Assembly: GCA_023205875.1 (NCBI GenBank)
Contig: CP060773.1
Span: forward strand, 186,001-250,000
Length of the DNA: 64,000 nt
DNA from: Chloropicon primus
Lineage: Eukaryota
Direction of reading: 5' to 3'
Numbering within the stretch: position 1 is the stretch's first letter; the number at the start of each line of letters is the position of its first letter. Of this stretch, positions 2,729 to 41,185 are shown one piece after another. Under the pieces are notes generated by a model, which worked only from the letters and a program-made list of their open reading frames with translations, was not told the origin of the DNA and made no database searches. Made by a program: the position numbers and the translations under genes.

Positions 2729-3882
2729 ATGGACAACGAGGTTGCTGTGTCCCAGGGGGTTGGAGCTGGTGCTCCCTGTGTTGATGTGGAGGAGGATCGG
2801 TGCTGGATCTGTCATGAAGTTGGAGTGGAAGGCAGAGAGCTTCATGTCCACTGCAAGTGTCATTCGCTGAAGGCACACGACGATTGCATTGCCCACTGGC
2901 AGCTCCGTAACGCCGGAACGGATGCCGAAATGAAGTACGTTTGATCATCTTTGTCGATCCTCGTCCATCGATGTGTGCTGACTGATGGGACCTCTCTCTC
3001 TCTCTGTGCAGGTGCAGGCTGTGCTCAATGAAGCTGCCGGACTGGAAGGACACGGCTTACCTGAACGGGACGAGATCCCTTGCCAAGGTGGTGACTTTGG
3101 CCGTCCAAGGTACGCTAGCTAGGTCCAGTCCCCTTCCCTCATGCTCATCATCGTCATCGTCGTCGTTCTGACTGACCAACCGCTTGTGTGTGTGTGCAGT
3201 GAACGGGGTGACCAAGTACATGAAAGTGAAGCTTGGCGGAGAGGAGAAGGCCGAAGAGTTCAAGCAAAAGTTGATCAGAGCTTTTAACTTGCCTTGTACG
3301 ACTCACTTGGACATCGACTTCAGCGTCTCGAACCCTTTCACTGCCGAAGACGTCTTGAAACTCAATGGCATCGGCTCGTACTCAGCTGCTATCCACTGCG
3401 GTGCCCTGATTGACCGAGAGGAGGACGAGGACGAGAAGGACGAGGATCCAGGCCAAGGCAACAGTTCCAAAGGTAACTCCAGCCGAAGGACGAGAACGAG
3501 AACGAGTCCCCTCCCCCTCCAAGGGGAGGAGGAGGACAGCGATACTGAATACAGCAGCAACACCGATACGGACCTGAACACCGACTCTGAAGCCGAGAGC
3601 GAGGAACCCAACTTGAGGGTCTCTTGCATCGACCGGTACGAGAGGTTGAGGCAGAGGAGACGGGAGAGGATCTTGCGAGAGCAACAGGAGCTTCGACAGG
3701 ACTCTCGAATCACGCAAGAGATTTTGAGCGAAGCCGAGGACAGTGACAGCGAAGGTCAAGTCGACTTGGAGCACATTCCAACATCTTCCAGCCAAGCTTT
3801 TCTGTCCTGCATGAACCTCCTGTGCCCCAAGCTTCGAAGGAAGAGAAGGAGAGTCGTCGGCATCGCCCCGCTCACCATCTAA
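2729..3882 (+). CDS. RING-variant (RINGv/C4HC3) zinc-finger protein, spliced
   Basis: CWIC...HCKC...AHDDCIAHW, intron, CRLC; second intron ~3110-3199; acidic low-complexity C-terminus. Upstream exons are possible. Confidence 0.7.
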
Positions 3883-28364: not shown

Positions 28365-29588
28365 TCAATCGATGAGGTGGCTCACGTCCGCCGTCCCAAG
28401 CTTGCCGCTGTAACTCCCGTTCCACACCTGCTTGGCGAACGTCTCGTTGGGAAGAATGATGCTGAGCATGTAGAGCTTCTCGGCAGCGTCAGGATTGACG
28501 ATGGAATGAACGTTCTTCGGCTTCACGAGAAGCGTGTCGCCCTCCGCACCCGTGACTGGCTCGTCGCTCTGATTCAGGTACAGATCCGCCCTTCCCGAAA
28601 GCACGATGAACAGCTCGTAGGCCTCGTCATGCAGGTGCCTTGGTATCACGCCCTGTGGATCCAAGATCTCGATGCTGCACGTGAAAGGGGTGCAATCCCG
28701 GAAAGGGTCGAAGACCGGAGCTATCCTGTTGTTCATGCTCGGCAATTGAAACGTCAGCAGCTCGGCCGTCCTCCGCAACCTGGAGCTCAGCAGGCAGCTT
28801 TCCGTTTCCTGCTGCTTGAGCTTGATTTGCGCCGGAACGTCCATGGAGTTCCTCCTGTCCACCGGAGAAGAAGATCGCCTGTGATCCATCGACCAGGTCT
28901 TGCTTCCCCCTCCGGCCCCTTGGGCGGCAATCACACCCTTGTGCGCCGCAAGTGAGACCGGGACGGATATGCTCAACATGACCATCCCTTCCTTCCCCCC
29001 GCCCCCCCGCGATTCTCCCCCCCTCGTCTCTATAGCGTAAGGCACCCTCGGAGCTATCGCAAAGATGTCCCCGGACTCGAGCTCCACCACGTCGCTGACT
29101 TTTGTCGACTCCGTCCCGAAGGACAAGTGGCCCAGCCGCCCGCTGCCGGAGAGGATGTAATACACGTGGTAGCAGTCCACTTCCACCCTCACCCTCGACC
29201 TCTCGGAGCTGGCGGACGCCTCCGACCCTCCCAAGCCAGCTTCATCTGCAACGAGCTCGAGCTCCACGCCAAAGGGGCTGCCTTCCCCGTCCCGACTCCG
29301 CTTCAACACGGTGTCGACGAGCCTTCCTCTGTCATCCTTCAACCACTTGTGGTCCTTACTCGAGAGCAACCGAGCCAAACTTCGCTCCGGCCTTTCGCAC
29401 ATCCTCTCCCTTCGGTCATTCCCCCCCGACCTCGCCCTCTGCGACTCTCTCCCCCGCCGCCTCACCGGCCTCGCACCACCGGGGACACCTAGGCTCCCCG
29501 TCGTCGTCGCCCTGCCACCCCTGTTGATCATCCTCAATGAATCAAGCACAAAACCAAAAAAGGGAGATAAACCGGTCGTGCTCCCCAC
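28365..29588 (-). CDS. Double cupin-domain protein
   Basis: VYYILSGSGR..LESGDIFAIAPRVPYAI and IPRHLHDEAYELFIVLSGRA..GDTLLVKPKNVHSIVN. The true start may be the ATG near 29531. Confidence 0.8.
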   Translation of the reverse strand: MGSTTGLSPFFGFVLDSLRMINRGGRATTTGSLGVPGGARPVRRRGRESQRARSGGNDRRERMCERPERSLARLLSSKDHKWLKDDRGRLVDTVLKRSRDGEGSPFGVELELVADEAGLGGSEASASSERSRVRVEVDCYHVYYILSGSGRLGHLSFGTESTKVSDVVELESGDIFAIAPRVPYAIETRGGESRGGGGKEGMVMLSISVPVSLAAHKGVIAAQGAGGGSKTWSMDHRRSSSPVDRRNSMDVPAQIKLKQQETESCLLSSRLRRTAELLTFQLPSMNNRIAPVFDPFRDCTPFTCSIEILDPQGVIPRHLHDEAYELFIVLSGRADLYLNQSDEPVTGAEGDTLLVKPKNVHSIVNPDAAEKLYMLSIILPNETFAKQVWNGSYSGKLGTADVSHLID

Positions 29589-29831
29589 TAATCGAAAGAT
29601 ATCGAGTCAATTCTTCGCTCCGTAACGCCCTCGCCCTCCGGATCCACCTCCCTCGCCCTCCACTGCGTCACAAAGTCACGCCACTCCTGCTCCTGAAGCT
29701 CTGCCCAATGCCTTGATGACCAAAGTTGGCGACCACTCCGGTTGCCAAACGAGTCGAGTGAGGGCTCGTTCGAAAGAGAAAGAGATGTTCTACCGCGATG
29801 CGTTGTCGTCTTTCCCTCTCACGCTCTCGTT
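29545..29831. repeat. Repeat family B, inverted copy truncated at 29831
   Basis: Reverse complement of ~754-1040. Similarity stops abruptly at 29831, next to the Fanzor 3' region. Confidence 0.9.
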
Positions 29832-30018
29832 ACCGTCAATAATCGACGACGGGAAATATCTTTCTCTTCTGCAATATCTTTCTCTTCTACAACGGTAGGG
29901 AAATCACAGTCAATACTGGAAGCACAAAGGCAAGTTCTCCTTTCCACTGAAAGAGAGAAACACGGAGAGAAACACGGAGAGAAACAGCCCCTTTCTTGAC
30001 GGCCCGGCCACAACTTAC

Positions 30019-30171
30019 CTGTTAGTTTTCTGCAAAGGTCGTTTCACCGAGTTTGTAAGTTTCTCGGCAGGGTAATTCGGCCCTACCACGACCATTCCAC
30101 CGTACATGAACGAATACTTCCGCCCACGCACGGCAGCCCGTACTAACAAACGTATGTGCAACCCTGAGGAG
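30019..30171 (-). ncRNA. Putative Fanzor omega-RNA (fRNA/reRNA) scaffold
   Basis: Directly 3' of the Fanzor stop. Complementary segments: 30142-30148 with 30020-30026 (UGUUAGU/ACUAACA); 15-bp hairpin 30100-30133; multibranch stem 30088-30093/30037-30042 enclosing two hairpins (GGUAGGG/CCCUGCC, CCGAG/CUCGG). Confidence 0.7.
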
Positions 30172-32268
30172 TTACACACTTTTTGGTTGACGCAAGTGCT
30201 TCAGGAGGACGTTGCGTGCCCCGTTCACATCCCGACCGCACTTGAAGCCACACTTCTGGCACTTGTACACCTCTGCTCCACCCAGGTTGTCCTTGATGTG
30301 TCCGCACCTGCCACAGGTCTTGGAGGTGTACTCCTCCGTCACGATCGCCAGCTCACTGCCGTGCAAGAGCACCTTGGAAGCCAAGAACGTTCTGAACGCA
30401 TAGTGCCTCAACGTCAAGAGCGTGCGAGCCGTCTTCTTCCTGATCACTCGGCGTCTCCCGTTGTTGTTCTTCTTCACCATGTCTTGGGACTTGAACTCCG
30501 GGAGGAGGATTGTGTCGAACCTCCTGCATAGATCGTTGGCTACCTTTTTGTGAAGCTCGTTCGTCAGACCTCGAAGTTTCTCCATGCAGGCGTATTGCTG
30601 TCTCTTCAAGTCGCGGCGGTCGAGGTAAGGGAGCTTCACCTTTGGGTCTTTGCGCTCGGAAATGATCCCATCAATCCTCCAGCAGAGGTTGAACAGCCTC
30701 GCGAAGCCTCGCTCGCCCGTGGCATACTCCCCGACGCCTTCTTGCGGCGAGTACGACGTCTGAAAGGTCCTGACTCCCGGATCCAGGGCGACAACCTTCC
30801 GCTTGTTCTCAGGCTTCAGGGGTGGCAGGCGATCCCATGGCGTCGCGATGGGAATGTGCATGTGGAACTGCCCAAGGCGATTTCTTGTGATCTTCACGGC
30901 ACCCTCGATCTTGCCCCCGGGGATCTCCTCCGTCAAGTACAGGGGCCCGCCGGCCATCTTCTTCTTGAACACCTCCAGCTTGGTCCACTTGCGTCGTTTC
31001 TTGTGCTTCGTATCATCCTTGTGTCTCGTGTTTGGCCTTTCGATCGTCTCCACGTTCTTTAACTCTCTTGCATCAATTTCAATGGTCCAAGAACTCGGTT
31101 GCTGACGTTGACGATACTTGAGAACGAAGCGGTGCCCCTTCTCCTCGCCGCGCTCCTTCATCGCTTCCTGCTTCGCGGTGTTCGAATCCCATGCCTTGAT
31201 GAGACTTCGCACGGCAGCTTGTCTGATGGCACAGGGGGTATCCTTCAGCCAAGGATGCTTCTGATTTACAAAGGCCCCGCTAACGTAGTCCCGGTCCTTG
31301 CCCACTTGGATGCGAAAAGCTCTGCCTCCAATTTGGCTCTCGAGTCTGTTCTCTCTGGCCGCGAAAAGCTCTGCCTCCTGTTTTGTCCATGGCCGTGGAG
31401 AGCATTGGATTTCTTTCAGCTCTTTCTTCAGGCCCTGAAAGACCTCAGGGCCTCGAGGTTTGGCCGTCACAAATCTGTCCAGCAGGACGGTCCAAACCAG
31501 CGGAAAACGCTCCTTCTTGACCGCCTCCAAACACTTGTTGTATGTGAAACGCGCAGCTCCCATCCAGTTGCAAAGGCACTTCGCCTGCTCAGGGTTCAAG
31601 CGCATCCTCAGCTTCCTCGTCCGTATCACCGTTCGCTCCGACAATAGCTTGGAGGTCTTCAGTTTCTGCCCCCTCTTCCTTTTGGCGGGCGGCTGCAATG
31701 TCTCGACGGATACCACAGAATCTTCTGGAAGGTTCAAGCACGACCTCCATCCCGTCTTCGGACACTTTACCTCTTCAAGTTCTCTCTTCATCGATGAGAA
31801 CCAGGTCTTCTTCACGCTGTCGTCCGCCAAGCCACCCGGCTGCTTCCCTGCTTTCTTCCCCCTCTTGTTCTTCTTCTTCTTACCCTTCTTCTTGTTCTTC
31901 TTCTTGCCCTTCTTGCGAGGCTTCTTGCGAGGCTTGCCTGACGAGCTCGAACTCTCACCCGCAGAGGAAGCCGCCTCCGGCGGCTTCCCCTTCTCCTTCC
32001 GCTTCCCCCCCCGCTTCTTGCGAGGCGTGCTCGAACCCTCACCCGCAGAGGCGGGGTCGTCCGCGATAGGAAGCAGGCACAACGAGTAGAGCAACTGCAA
32101 GCCCTGATTCCAGAACCGACGTAACGGCCGCTCCGTCGTCGGAGACTCCTGCCCCGACTTCGAAGCGCCCTGAGCATGACTCTCGCCAGAGTGCGACCTC
32201 CTTGTGGAACTCGTCGAGCCACTCCCCTGCTTCTCCTTTTTCTTACGGCGCTTCCCTGATCGCGCCAT
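30172..32268 (-). CDS. Fanzor2 RNA-guided endonuclease (IS607-type TnpB derivative), 698 aa
   Basis: RTRKLRMRLNPEQ..WMGAARFTYNKCL (OrfB HTH); RuvC-I VVALDPGVRTF; ILLPEF with Pro at the canonical Glu position and shifted Glu in VTEEYTSKT; zinc finger CGRC..CQKC; RuvC-III RDVNGARNV; K/R-rich N-terminus. Confidence 0.93.
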   Translation of the reverse strand: MARSGKRRKKKEKQGSGSTSSTRRSHSGESHAQGASKSGQESPTTERPLRRFWNQGLQLLYSLCLLPIADDPASAGEGSSTPRKKRGGKRKEKGKPPEAASSAGESSSSSGKPRKKPRKKGKKKNKKKGKKKKNKRGKKAGKQPGGLADDSVKKTWFSSMKRELEEVKCPKTGWRSCLNLPEDSVVSVETLQPPAKRKRGQKLKTSKLLSERTVIRTRKLRMRLNPEQAKCLCNWMGAARFTYNKCLEAVKKERFPLVWTVLLDRFVTAKPRGPEVFQGLKKELKEIQCSPRPWTKQEAELFAARENRLESQIGGRAFRIQVGKDRDYVSGAFVNQKHPWLKDTPCAIRQAAVRSLIKAWDSNTAKQEAMKERGEEKGHRFVLKYRQRQQPSSWTIEIDARELKNVETIERPNTRHKDDTKHKKRRKWTKLEVFKKKMAGGPLYLTEEIPGGKIEGAVKITRNRLGQFHMHIPIATPWDRLPPLKPENKRKVVALDPGVRTFQTSYSPQEGVGEYATGERGFARLFNLCWRIDGIISERKDPKVKLPYLDRRDLKRQQYACMEKLRGLTNELHKKVANDLCRRFDTILLPEFKSQDMVKKNNNGRRRVIRKKTARTLLTLRHYAFRTFLASKVLLHGSELAIVTEEYTSKTCGRCGHIKDNLGGAEVYKCQKCGFKCGRDVNGARNVLLKHLRQPKSV

Positions 32269-32496
32269 GACTGCTAGGGTTTCACTCGCCGTCCTCGTCC
32301 CTCGTCCCTCGCGACAAACTCAACCGATCGATCGATCGTCTGCCAACTCGAACTGACGCTGCTCTCTCTCTCTCTCGAGGCGCGAAAATGTTTTCAAATC
32401 CCCCCCAAAAGAAGCGAAATCACTTGTAAATTTATTACACTCGTTTCGATACACAGGGCGAGGTTTGTTTTTCAGGGGAGGGGGTCGAACTCTTCG

Positions 32497-32670
32497 TTCT
32501 GGTGGATTTCTCCCTTCCGCTGAACCATCATAACGGCCGAGCACGAGGGCGAACCAGGAGGAGGGAGAGAGAGAGAAGGGGGACGGGAGAGCGCGGAGGA
32601 GGAAGAGGGAGGCGGAGGACCGGACAGAAGGAAGCGTCGTCTCGTGCTCTTTCGAAAGAGCCCTCGCTCG
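32497..32670. repeat. Repeat family E
   Basis: Reverse complement of ~58335-58503 (TGGTGGATTTCTCCCTTCCGCTGAACCATCATAACGGCCGAGCACGAGGGCGAACCAGGAGG...); partly present again at 40051-40190. Confidence 0.85.
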
Positions 32671-32716
32671 AAGAGAACGACCCGGTGGTGAGGATCTGAG
32701 GAGCACGGGCGTGAAG

Positions 32717-33710
32717 ATGGCGGTGACAGGGGGAGCGAGCAAGAGGCAGAGGACGGAGGGATGCGCTGGAGGTGCTTCCCGAGTGGGCGTGGTTCCTGGT
32801 CTTGAAGCAGCTGGACGATTACGACCACCTTGCTTTTGGGGTTGACCTGCAGGACGTTCCTCGAGGCGGTGACGAAGGCGACGAGCCCCGAGGAGAAGAA
32901 GAAGGCTCGCCTGAGGACGGACCTGTCGCAAGAGAAGTTGTTCGATCAGGTGCCTTCCTTCACTTTGGGTTGGTACCAGCGGATGTTCCAATCGTTCAAA
33001 AGGAAGAAGTCTCGGAGATTTGAAAGAAAGAAGGGAGCACGGTTCAATTTTGTACCTCTGTATGGACACTCCAACTACTTGTACCTCTCCGACTACACGT
33101 ACGACGTCGAGCTGATGTACCTCGCCGCTTTCCAGGGCAGCAAGAAGGTGATGAAGTGGCTGGTGAGCCAAGGGATCCCTTTGGGTATCATTCTTCGCGG
33201 TTTACCTCATGAGGAGCGGTAGCAGTTGAAAGAGCTGCTGAAGGAGGTCACATTGATGTTCTGGAATGGTTGAGGAGCGAGGGGTGCGGGTTTGGTGAGG
33301 AGGCTTGTGCGGGTGCAGCTCGAGGAGGCCACCTTGACGCTCTGCAGTGGCTTCGAAGCCTGGAACCGCCTTGCCGTTGGAGCGGGTGGACTTCTTTTAG
33401 TGCAGCTCAAGGAGGCCACCTTCATATTCTCAAGTGGCTTCGAAGCCTGGATCCGCCTTGCCCTTGGGACGTGGAGACTTGTGAATATGCAGCTAGAGGA
33501 GGTCACCTTGATGTTCTCAAGTGGGCTCGTAGCCAGCGTCCGCCTTGCCCTTGGAACAAGAATACTTGTTGGCAGGCAGCTGAAAGAGGTCACTTTCATG
33601 TTCTCAAGTGGCTTCGAAGCCAGCATCCGCCTTGCCCTTGGAAACCAAAGAAATGCAAAATCGTAACCCGAAACCCGAAAGTCGTCAAGTGGATCCAGGA
33701 GAACTCTTAA
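32717..33710 (+). pseudogene. Frameshifted F-box-like/ankyrin-repeat gene (AAxGGHLxxLKWLRSxxPPCPW repeats)
   Basis: The reading jumps frame near 32757, 32838 and 33205, joining MAVTGG.. / DALEVLPEWAWFLVLKQL..LAF / GLTCRTF..LMYLAAFQG / AAEGGHIDVLEWL plus 4 further ankyrin-like repeats. Confidence 0.75.
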
Positions 33711-33807
33711 CCAAGACAATGTCTCACCAACCTGTCATCGACTTTCCTTTCCTGGTTTCTCCTCCTTTCTCCTTTCTCCTCTCTGATCGATGCTGGGCAG
33801 CAGGTCG

Positions 33808-34170
33808 ACCGAGGAGGGGAAAGAACGAGAACGAGATAGATGGCGAGAACGAGAGTGTGAGAAGGAAAGACGACAACGCATCGCGGTAGAACATCTCTTT
33901 ATCTTTCGAACGAGCCCTCACTCGACTCGTTTGGCAACCGGAGTGGTCGCCAACTTTGGTCATCAAGGCATTGGGCAGAGCTTCAGGAGCAGGAGTGGCG
34001 TGACTTTGCGACGCAGTGGAGGGCGAGGGAGGTGAATCCGGAGGGCGAGGGCGCTACAGAGCGAAGCGTTGACTCGATATCTTTCGATTGGTGGGGCGCA
34101 CGACCGGTTTCTCTCCCGGAACAAGGGTTTGCTTGAGTTGTGAAGGCACGAGAGAGGACACGGCAAAGGG
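33808..34170. repeat. Repeat family B, direct copy
   Basis: Near-identical to 720-1075. Confidence 0.92.
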
Positions 34171-34219
34171 ACGTGGAGGAGCCAGGAGGGCAGAGAGCCA
34201 AGAGGTTTTGGGCGTGGTG

Positions 34220-35500
34220 ATGAGGAACACCGGGGCTGCAGGGCGAATCAGCCGAAGGATGGGGCACGTGAGACGCGGCATGAGACTCTCCTGCTCTCTG
34301 TCCTCGTCCCCAGAAGCCAAGGACACCGTAGCAGTCCTCGGCGGAGGCATCTCTGGCTTGGTGTGTGCCTTGGACGTGAAGCGCGCGAGGGAGGACACCA
34401 AGGTAGTCCTGTTCGAGCAATCGAGGAGAGCGGGAGGGAGGGCGTCGAGCCGAGTGGTGTGGCGCGACGGGCCGACGAAGGACTTTGCTTGGGACCACGG
34501 GTGCCAGTTCCTCACGCCCAAGTCAGCGGTCGTGAAGGAGATGTGCGGGAGCTTGGTCGAGAGGGGAGTCCTCGCGGAGTGGACGGGAACCTTCGGGCTC
34601 CTGGACGCGAGGGCCGGCACGTTTTCGGAGGACAAGAGGGAAAGGTGGAGGCTCGTGGGCAAGCCGATGATGGGCGCTCTGGCGGAGCACCTGGCGAGGG
34701 AAGCCCAAGACCTCGCGGGGGTGGACGTTCGCTTCGACGCTCGGGTGACCGGGATACGGAGGCGACGGGGCTCGCTGGGCACTGGGCGCTGGGTCATCAC
34801 CTCAAAGGGGAGGGGGGGTGACCCCGTGGAGACCTTGGCCGACGTGGTCGTCGCGAGCGACTGCCTCCAAGCGAACCTGGTGAAGGACCTCGGAGGGGCG
34901 AGCAAGGTCTTCGAGGCCATGAACGCCGCGGGAAGGAGGAGCTCCGTGGGGGGCTCCCCCCCGAGCTTCGCGGCGATGGTCGCGGTGAGGGGGCCCACGG
35001 GCCTCCCGGAGGGCGTAGCGGTCACGGGAAGCGACCGAGTGAGCTGGATGGCCAAGGACAGCAGCAAGCCGGGGAGGTCCTCCTGCGCGCCGGACGGCGT
35101 CGAGCTGTGGACCCTCCAGGCCTCCCCGTCCTACGCCTCGAGGATCGTCGAGGAGAGGGGTTTCACGCGGAGAGGGACCCCGGAGCACGAGGCCCTGCTC
35201 CAAGAGGTGGCGCGGGACCTCACGTCCGGGGCGAGGGAGGCCTTCGCGAGCATCGGGCAGGACTTTCCGGGCGATCGCCTCCTCGTGGGCGCGCCGACGA
35301 GCCACCGGTGGGGCTCGGCCTTCCCGCCGCCCTGCGCGTCCGGGGAGGTCGGCGCGGCCCGCCTCGCGGCGTCGGAGGACGGCACGCTCCTGGCGTGTGG
35401 GGACTGGGCGGCGCCCGAGGGGGAGGAGGGCAGGGTGGAGGCGGCGATCCTGTCCGGGAAAGCGGCGGCGAGGAGGACAGGCACCCTACTACTTAGATGA
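34220..35500 (+). CDS. FAD/NAD(P)-binding oxidoreductase (renalase-like)
   Basis: VAVLGGGISGL..VVLFEQSRRAGGRASSR..WDHGCQF..VSWMAKDSSKPGR..HRWGSAFP..ACGDW..RVEAAILSG. Confidence 0.88.
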   Translation: MRNTGAAGRISRRMGHVRRGMRLSCSLSSSPEAKDTVAVLGGGISGLVCALDVKRAREDTKVVLFEQSRRAGGRASSRVVWRDGPTKDFAWDHGCQFLTPKSAVVKEMCGSLVERGVLAEWTGTFGLLDARAGTFSEDKRERWRLVGKPMMGALAEHLAREAQDLAGVDVRFDARVTGIRRRRGSLGTGRWVITSKGRGGDPVETLADVVVASDCLQANLVKDLGGASKVFEAMNAAGRRSSVGGSPPSFAAMVAVRGPTGLPEGVAVTGSDRVSWMAKDSSKPGRSSCAPDGVELWTLQASPSYASRIVEERGFTRRGTPEHEALLQEVARDLTSGAREAFASIGQDFPGDRLLVGAPTSHRWGSAFPPPCASGEVGAARLAASEDGTLLACGDWAAPEGEEGRVEAAILSGKAAARRTGTLLLR

Positions 35501-39818: not shown

Positions 39819-40050
39819 TTAGCGGGCAGTCGGAGTGGAGGCTTGAGCTTGCTTCGAAATCATTTGGAAAGAAAGTAAAAATAGTGATAGTAACAGGATA
39901 GATCGATTCGATAGAAAACGCGGGCTCGCTTGTGGGAAGCACTAGCACGTCACCTCGATTGGACGGAGACTGATCCTTCACCAAGAAGACAACGTTGTCT
40001 CACGAGCTAGACCTTTGCTTTCCCCGTCTCCTCATGCGTCATCATGAATG

Positions 40051-40630
40051 ATAACGGCCGAGCACGAGGGCGAACCAGGAGGAGGGAGAGAGAGAGAAGG
40101 GGGACGGGAGAGCGCGGAGGAGGAAGAGGGAAGCGGAGGACCGGTCAGAAGGAAGCGTCGTCTCGTGCTCTTTCGAAAGAGCCCTCGCTCGAAGAGAACG
40201 ACCCGGTGGTGAGGATCTGAGGAGCACGGGCGTGAAGATGGCGGTGACAGGGGGAGCGAGCAAGAGGCAGAGGACGGAGGGATGCGCTGGAGGTGCTTCC
40301 CGAGTGGGCGTGGTTCCTGGTCTTGAAGCAGCTGGACGATTACGACCACCTTGCTTTTGGGGTTGACCTGCAGGACGTTCCTCGAGGCGGTGACGAAGGC
40401 GACGAGCCCCGAGGAGAAGAAGAAGGCTCGCCTGAGGACGGACCTGTCGCAAGAGAAGCCGCCTTGCCCTTGGGACCGGTGGACTTGTACGTACGCAGCT
40501 TCAGGGGGTCACCTTGACATTCTGCAGTAGGCTCGAAGCCAGAATCCGCCTTGCCCTTGGAACCCAGTGGAATGCAGATCCGCAGCGAATCGTCACCCGA
40601 AAGTCCTCAAGTGGATCCAGGAGAACTCTT
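40051..40630 (+). pseudogene. Internally deleted duplicate of the ankyrin pseudogene
   Basis: 40051-40458 is a near-identical 408-bp copy of 32530-32937, joined directly to degenerate ankyrin repeats ending ...GTGGATCCAGGAGAACTCTT as at 33708. Confidence 0.88.
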
Positions 40631-41185
40631 CACAACACAAACGAATCGCTTGTCACGTTGCATTGCGCCCTCCCCCCCCCTCCTCCATGATCCTCCTCTT
40701 TTTTGCCGCCATGTGCATCTAATTTCCCTTCCCCATGTTTTTAGTCTCCCCAAACCACACCACAGCATTTCGAGAAAAAAGATTGCAGATATTCTTCCAA
40801 CCACGGTGGTTCGGCATCATTCATCGCTTGACCCCGGCGCCCGTTGCGGAACTGAAGGTGAGTGACGACGACGATGACGATGACGATGACGAGAAGCGCG
40901 ATGCACACCTCCTCCGCATCCCTCCCTCCATCGCTTCCGCTTCCCTCCATCCATCCATCCATGCTTTCCTCCTCACCAACGCTTGCGAAGATGTGTGTGA
41001 TGCAACATGCATGCACCCTCGACGACCTCCACGACACCGTGACTAACTCCTTCCATGCTCCTGCTCCTTCTCTGTCTCTCTTTGCTTCTGCTGCTGCTGC
41101 TGCTTTCTGCCGAATACCCGCACTGCTCTGCACGTAACGCACGCCCGTGCGTTACAAAGAAGAAACCAGAAACCACAAAGGCATC

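Follow-up and report, generated by a model that had tools for sequence, protein, structure and literature searches.

The window analysed here, the whole 64-kb stretch, shows the organization of a compact green-algal genome, with host genes that include ClpB, SBDS and cupin genes. Its minus strand carries an intact Fanzor2 open reading frame (ORF) that starts with a lysine-rich N-terminal extension (Table 1). The RuvC catalytic residues are all retained, namely D496 in a DPG motif, E646 and D680, and a zinc finger is formed by C652/C655 and C670/C673, with E646 lying six residues before C652. The window protein thus shows each of the residues by which the available text of PMC13565253 recognizes Fanzor2: DPG at RuvC-I, a catalytic glutamate six residues before the zinc finger, and the RuvC-III aspartate. 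The best PDB match is 9b0l (ApmFz2, E 2.7e-19), and the nearest protein relatives, annotated as 'putative IS605 transposase [Chloropicon primus]', are 90-99% identical and form a 46-member cluster. With a Fanzor2 as the closest solved relative and multiple copies in a eukaryote, the protein is assigned to Fanzor2 on the strength of its sequence. The accessible part of PMC6731263 gives a family size of 25 members in the C. primus genome, and the portions available of Yoon et al. (PMC10711439; bioRxiv 10.1101/2023.08.09.552727) describe the family as Fanzor2* in a non-autonomous element with terminal inverted repeats (TIRs) and a variable 5-nt target site duplication (TSD).

No resolvase Pfam match that would mark a serine-recombinase TnpA occurs in P0001 or the neighbouring ORFs (34 ORFs scanned). 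Exact 21-nt scaffold-end patterns have no match in viral contigs or prokaryotic genomes, and scans of viral, metagenome and genome sequences contain no near-identical copy of the element, the best reaching 56% identity. When 32268-31750 is compared by eye with the relatives L017 and L019, a remnant of a TnpA serine recombinase overlaps, in a different reading frame, the N-terminal part of the relatives, suggesting that part of the Fanzor N-terminus may have arisen from such a remnant. Two metagenomic proteins (P0031, P0069) consist of XPG nuclease domains fused to a TnpB-type C-terminus that is ~52% identical to the window Fanzor. A telomere-like AAACCCTA motif lies just upstream of the Fanzor start codon, at 32283-32274 on the minus strand, where it may act as a telo-box.

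Table 1. Features of the Fanzor2 locus, in window coordinates; X1 to X7 are sequencing runs, and L numbers are related loci.
Feature	Position	Strand	Remarks
Upstream segment	32488-32285	-	Low-copy in X1 (DNA), where its contig is 17,447 nt long
Fanzor2 ORF	32268-30172	-	698 aa, intact; PF07282, PF12323 (TnpB-type domains)
Predicted omega-RNA scaffold	30185-30019	-	Nominal 5' end; 3' end (30019) placed by comparison with relatives
Closing helix, 5' strand (UUGUUAGU)	30149-30142	-	Covaries with the 3' strand in L016, L017, L019, L002/L073 and L077
Closing helix, 3' strand ACUAAC, with terminal AG	30026-30019	-	Also the exon side of the donor
5' splice site GTAAGT	30018-30013	-	Invariant in DNA run X2; copies first branch at 30012
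Probable GT-AG intron, 132 nt	30018-29887	-	Skipped in contigs of X4 and X7 (probable RNA)
Originally predicted acceptor TTTCAG	29952-29947	-	No joint; no YTRAY in the preceding 50 nt
Branch-point-like TTGAC (predicted)	29913-29909	-	A lies 23 nt before the used acceptor
Acceptor TGTAG of the window copy	29891-29887	-	Window departs from most copies at 29891
Predicted post-splicing guide of the window copy	29886-29867	-	Within an 18-bp tandem duplication

The minus-strand segment 30200-30019 folds with a z-score of -3.8. Together with covariation, this gives the structured 3' omega-RNA with conserved terminal pairing that is a feature of Fanzor2. GUUAGU (30147-30142) can pair with ACUAAC (30026-30021), and in each of the relatives named for this helix in Table 1, a helix with compensating changes, followed by two bases ending in G, lies downstream of the ORF. 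None of the six distinct relatives has a GT directly after the helix and dinucleotide. Helix calls were obtained at 15 of 89 loci (11 distinct), and seven distinct ones, including the window, were kept by their common sequence context; the calls at L021, the L046 group, L068 and L078 were set aside as chance, and 74 loci gave no call. Anchored scripts replaced MAFFT, which misplaced the longer scaffold of the window. In ApmFz2, as far as the available text of PMC11832414 goes, a pseudoknot forms between the 3'-terminal bases of the scaffold and an upstream segment; the long-range closing helix is likely its equivalent. ACUAAC had also been proposed as a branch point; it covaries with GUUAGU in relatives and is therefore held by pairing, not a branch point.

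Multi-copy relatives fix where the scaffold stops. In a set of 172 loci, 170 of which were examined, conservation within groups of copies ends 2 nt past the 3' strand of the helix, at CGG, CCG or CAG, with 11, 11, 6, 6, 4, 4, 3, 2 and 2 distinct flanks per diverging group, a count that leaves out internal polymorphisms and chance common flank bases (many of the listed groups). L002 and L073 likewise diverge directly after the helix and AG. Since relatives part at this point, we infer that the window scaffold ends at 30019, two bases past the closing helix; an element end at 30030 was rejected. Thermodynamic folding is equivocal on the helix: its modelled probability of 0.8-0.9 in the isolated scaffold drops to 0.15 once the spliced 20 nt are attached and to 0.01 with the unspliced 20 nt, and the MFE structures lack it. 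These models do not reliably separate spliced from unspliced forms. Run X5 holds a divergent family member over 30132-30303, with 17 differences in 172 nt and a scaffold that differs after 30132. By eye, the locus L018 (1051-1415, 3310-3660) has a flanking long direct repeat and an inverted copy of the downstream 80 nt, and the usual scaffold end is missing; it is possibly another capture.

GTAAGT lies directly 3' of the predicted scaffold end. This hexamer occurs 16 times, and CAGGTAAGT twice, per 128,000 positions, which makes the chance of GTAAGT at one fixed place ~16/128,000. The position of the donor is more than chance, given this rarity, a place fixed independently by the relatives, and its use in contigs of probable RNA runs. 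Seven of 21 sequencing runs were examined: X1 and X2, taken by guess as DNA, X4-X7, taken by guess as RNA, and X13, recorded as RNA. X13 yielded no contig at the locus, which is no proof of absence. Contig depth is a coarse and poor measure of level, and contigs drop rare forms.

The genomic copies of the element continue well past the donor. In X2, a single unbranched contig with no other letter covers 30072-30013 at a depth of 4700, and depth holds at ~3200 over 29986-29892 (3197.5 over 29986-29901) against 3623.6 over the scaffold; the minus-strand stretch 30018-29892 is thus multi-copy for 127 nt past the scaffold end. The unbranched contig and the multi-copy depth together indicate that GTAAGT is invariant and that the next 127 nt belong to the element. 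An element end at 30019 was accordingly rejected, and the IS607-type arrangement, in which the element ends on the dinucleotide that closes the scaffold, does not apply to DNA that is multi-copy for at least 127 nt beyond it. A constant GTAAGT and a stop of conservation at ...CTAACAG had been proposed as checks on the copies: the donor is constant, and conservation runs on to 29892. What had been taken for flank in the 'unspliced guide' is element sequence common to most copies.

The window copy itself has unusual ends. At 29891 it departs from X1, X2, X4 and X7, with loose ends at 29892 in X2, X4 and X7; past 29892, the four runs share a common pyrimidine-rich stretch, in which X4's 30 letters contain no AG. 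The right end of the window copy is therefore atypical. The left end looks atypical as well, and TGTAG is not repeated near it; a scan for a TIR/TSD pair at the window copy, both ends of which look atypical, gave weak pairs and none that was convincing. A 277-bp inverted repeat (29562-29838 and 33841-34117) was considered as the element TIRs and rejected: the repeat is dispersed, and a third copy lies at 747-1023. This ~280-370-bp repeat, 95-98% alike at 734-1033, 29562-29838 and 33828-34127, has many weaker relatives across the window and is MITE-like. A frameshifted gene with 87-bp (29-aa) ankyrin-like repeats occupies 32718-33712, with a shorter copy at 40048-40640; the annotated Fanzor copies P0005 and P0146 are also fused to an ankyrin-like tail in gene models.

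In the probable RNA runs, scaffold contigs stop at 30019 in X4, X5 and X7, and in X6 they run to 30018 before other sequence follows. Interior depth compares with scaffold depth as 105 vs 1888 in X4, 170 vs 1280 in X7, 0 vs 282 in X5 and 0 vs 28 in X6, which suggests that the spliced form is the main form in the contigs. At the junction, the X4 assembly divides into four nodes (depths 850, 700, 1350 and 127), and continuations from it measure 1555 nt and 817 nt; the X4 continuation that begins with T is a single unrelated contig, and the branching at 30019/30018 could be partly poly(A). Continuations after the scaffold end differ among X4, X6 and X7, and one of them has been mapped. The joint 29886-30019 (132 nt; CT..AC on the plus strand, GT..AG on the minus strand) appears at depth 28.9 in X4 and 20.5 in X7, two different studies. 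Record lengths leave no letters between its two sides (29+108=137; 38+29=67); the short side has 29 letters, below the 31-letter bar of the tool. The 132-nt stretch that these two runs skip, on a guessed RNA type and that 29-letter side, is present in the window DNA, where it combines GT-AG ends with a branch-like motif as in U2-type introns.

These joints modify the original prediction, which placed a 72-nt intron between 30018 and 29947. Its motif letters and coordinates are right, including ACTAACAG before the donor, the TTTCAG, the 72 nt from GT to AG and two 12-bp pyrimidine repeats between GTAAGT and TTTCAG. Among the joints listed in all four probable RNA runs (X4-X7), however, none connects 29946 with 30019, and the acceptor used at the locus is 29887 rather than 29947. 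The broader proposal, a functional spliceosomal site at the scaffold end through which splicing alters the guide, is supported; the scaffold end acts as a donor, contrary to the suggestion that the element end might serve as an acceptor. Splicing had been offered as a way to switch, remove or mature the guide, and contig depths with the spliced form as the main one fit maturation better than a minor switch.

A further contig in X4 and X5 follows the ORF over 31837-31740 of the minus strand, with five differences, and then jumps to a scaffold-end-like stretch in which GG, not AG, precedes the same GTAAGT. It is unspliced and turns A-rich after ~14 nt, and its depth in X4 (2331) exceeds that of the full ORF (1069). 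The closest relatives, L016 and L017, also have GG as this dinucleotide, and the contig is likely an internally deleted derivative of the element.

The best reading of 30018-29887 is an element-borne spliceosomal intron: its removal would take the transposon end out of the transcript and connect the scaffold with copy-specific RNA from further downstream. We assign a probability of roughly 0.6 to the view that splicing removes the element stretch and connects the scaffold to this copy-specific RNA as a putative guide. With a donor at the predicted scaffold end and assemblies that skip the element end, host splicing machinery likely supplies the targeting sequence of each copy. The mRNA would carry the ORF, scaffold, intron and flank in that order, and would be spliced and then cut into omega-RNA by analogy with bacterial TnpB, which trims its own mRNA to omega-RNA; for Fanzors, the consulted portion of PMC10690162 leaves the matter undecided. 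The Fanzor would then load the spliced omega-RNA and cut DNA matching the first 15-20 nt past the junction. As to origin, a terminal-repeat transposon likely captured an IS607-type Fanzor2, whose end came to lie before a donor within the new carrier. Such a capture by a TIR transposon would have separated the scaffold from the flank by well over 100 nt. In this arrangement the guide would be a fixed element sequence without splicing and copy-specific again with it. A variable TSD would be hard to build into a fixed scaffold end, a problem that an intron would remove.

A stronger version of the splicing model, in which the intron reaches an acceptor at the very end of typical copies, would have the spliceosome cut the terminal repeat of the transposon out of the RNA, rebuild a flank-derived guide and make the element a spliceosome-dependent, RNA-guided homing nuclease. 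This extension is tentative and appears less probable than splicing to a copy-specific guide as such. Homing would need the acceptor to lie at the end of typical copies. Discrimination is a weak point of the mechanism: within the window, the spliced guide of this copy best matches the locus itself, where TAG immediately precedes the match, so that an occupied site could not be told from an empty one.

The main rival is a poly(A) trap, which we consider unlikely. Here, the donor would serve to splice the Fanzor mRNA to host sequence further downstream, which would lend it a 3' end. The omega-RNA may be without use, changes to the guide would be a by-product, and the exact position of the donor would stem from an AG-ending IS607-type end landing once before a donor. 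The length of the two X4 continuations fits such a trap, as do annotated gene models (P0135, P0005, P0146) in which copies continue into SET-domain or ankyrin-like exons further downstream. However, the scaffold, helix and catalytic triad are intact, and the donor shows no variation, in contrast to the sequence from +7 on; a trap would, moreover, be compatible with guide use.

An IStron-like switch is improbable. In this scenario, the helix or bound Fanzor would hide from U1 the last three exon bases, 30021-30019, with which U1 presumably pairs; unspliced RNA would be loaded, and splicing would divert it. The sequence does place the helix strand over this U1-binding site, and the highly covered, internally deleted derivative (31740) keeps its donor unspliced. 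In IStrons, according to the accessible text of PMC10690162, scaffold structure and TnpB repress splicing. On the other hand, the unspliced guide is fixed for 6 nt and matches, in the window, the element itself only, and the unspliced RNA is the minor form in contigs.

That no splicing takes place is very improbable. The runs would then be DNA, or the joints strain-specific deletions or assembly artefacts at the 2-nt AG microhomology. Guessed run types, the 29-letter short side and a 'both' value of 2 leave some room for this, as does X2, whose cover leaves out 29840-29889 and which hence provides no same-locus DNA control. Yet two studies share the same GT-AG joint, several continuations in X4-X7 that are unrelated to each other all begin at a single base where DNA run X2 does not branch, and the cover of X4-X7 is uneven in the manner typical of RNA. 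Least probable of all is trans-splicing or the use of many alternative acceptors, by which the scaffold would be joined to many host RNAs in a guide library larger than the copy number: continuations do differ between runs and all but one are unmapped, but the mapped junction is in cis, and the depths of single continuations (29, 127, 241) are about those of one of ~25 copies (the family size in the available part of PMC6731263) in a total near 3000.

Splicing to a copy-specific guide bears on two open questions: how guide RNAs of Fanzors are made in their own hosts, and how a Fanzor keeps its guide variable once captured by a transposon whose terminal repeats are long. A spliceosome-assembled guide, if true, would be a eukaryote-only solution, and the guides of some Fanzors would be unreadable from the genome alone. 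It would also offer a natural design for Pol II-driven, splicing-gated guide RNAs. The homing version, if true, would add a third route by which an OMEGA guide can be adapted to a new transposon whose TSDs vary, beside taking a flanking base or the TSD into the scaffold, and would open guide choice to splicing control.

Among known systems, the closest is the C. primus Fanzor2* of Yoon et al., which is the same protein family (P0003 is UPR03652.1 in their Table S3). In the parts available, their element has degenerate TIRs, and the TIR and TSD are predicted to join the Fanzor2* scaffold, whereas at least 127 nt of element sequence follow the scaffold in the window. The word 'intron' occurs nowhere in both main texts and the supplement, and 'splic' nowhere in the bioRxiv text and supplement, figure alignments (2C/S3) lying outside this count. 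The IS607-encoded Fanzor2 and pro-Fanzor elements (ApmFz2, PDB 9B0L, PMC11832414; ISXfa1), in the text accessible, have the RuvC signatures and the long-range terminal pairing in common with the window element, and their scaffold likewise stops two bases past that pairing. Their guide is the directly adjacent flank, whereas the window element lacks TnpA and has a donor after the scaffold end that the relatives examined do not have. Intron-containing Fanzor1 genes (Jiang et al. 2023, PMC10530073) resemble the window case in that Fanzor transcripts pass the spliceosome; in the available text, these introns are treated as ORF features, with none at the scaffold/guide border. The accessible portions of PMC10530073, PMC10432273, PMC11423790, PMC13236599 and PMC12301720 contain no comparable spliced guide. 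An intron or splice site placed in this way at a Fanzor or TnpB guide border was not found in the literature searched, which excludes most subscription papers and Repbase, where an earlier note may exist. The locus represents a known element family with an apparently undescribed, well-placed probable intron.

In the Introners of algae, a DNA transposon supplies spliceosomal splice signals and is removed whole from host mRNA. The window element is not one intron as a whole: its donor is internal and follows the ORF and scaffold, and the intron comprises only the 3' end of the element, in a guide RNA. Bacterial IStrons combine IS607 or IS605 elements with a group I intron; their scaffold border is the 3' splice site, and splicing severs the guide (available text of PMC10690162 and PMC13565253). 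No group I intron is among the four sub-threshold Rfam matches in 29500-34500. The likeness is that, in a TnpB-family guide RNA, the border between scaffold and guide falls on a splice site. IStrons are self-splicing and excise the whole element, whereas splicing in the window is probably spliceosomal and would remove only the terminal part. There, the scaffold ends on a 3' splice site and is severed from its guide; here, it ends on the exon side of a 5' splice site and would be joined to one. The window case is therefore best read as the reverse, or mirror image, of bacterial IStrons.
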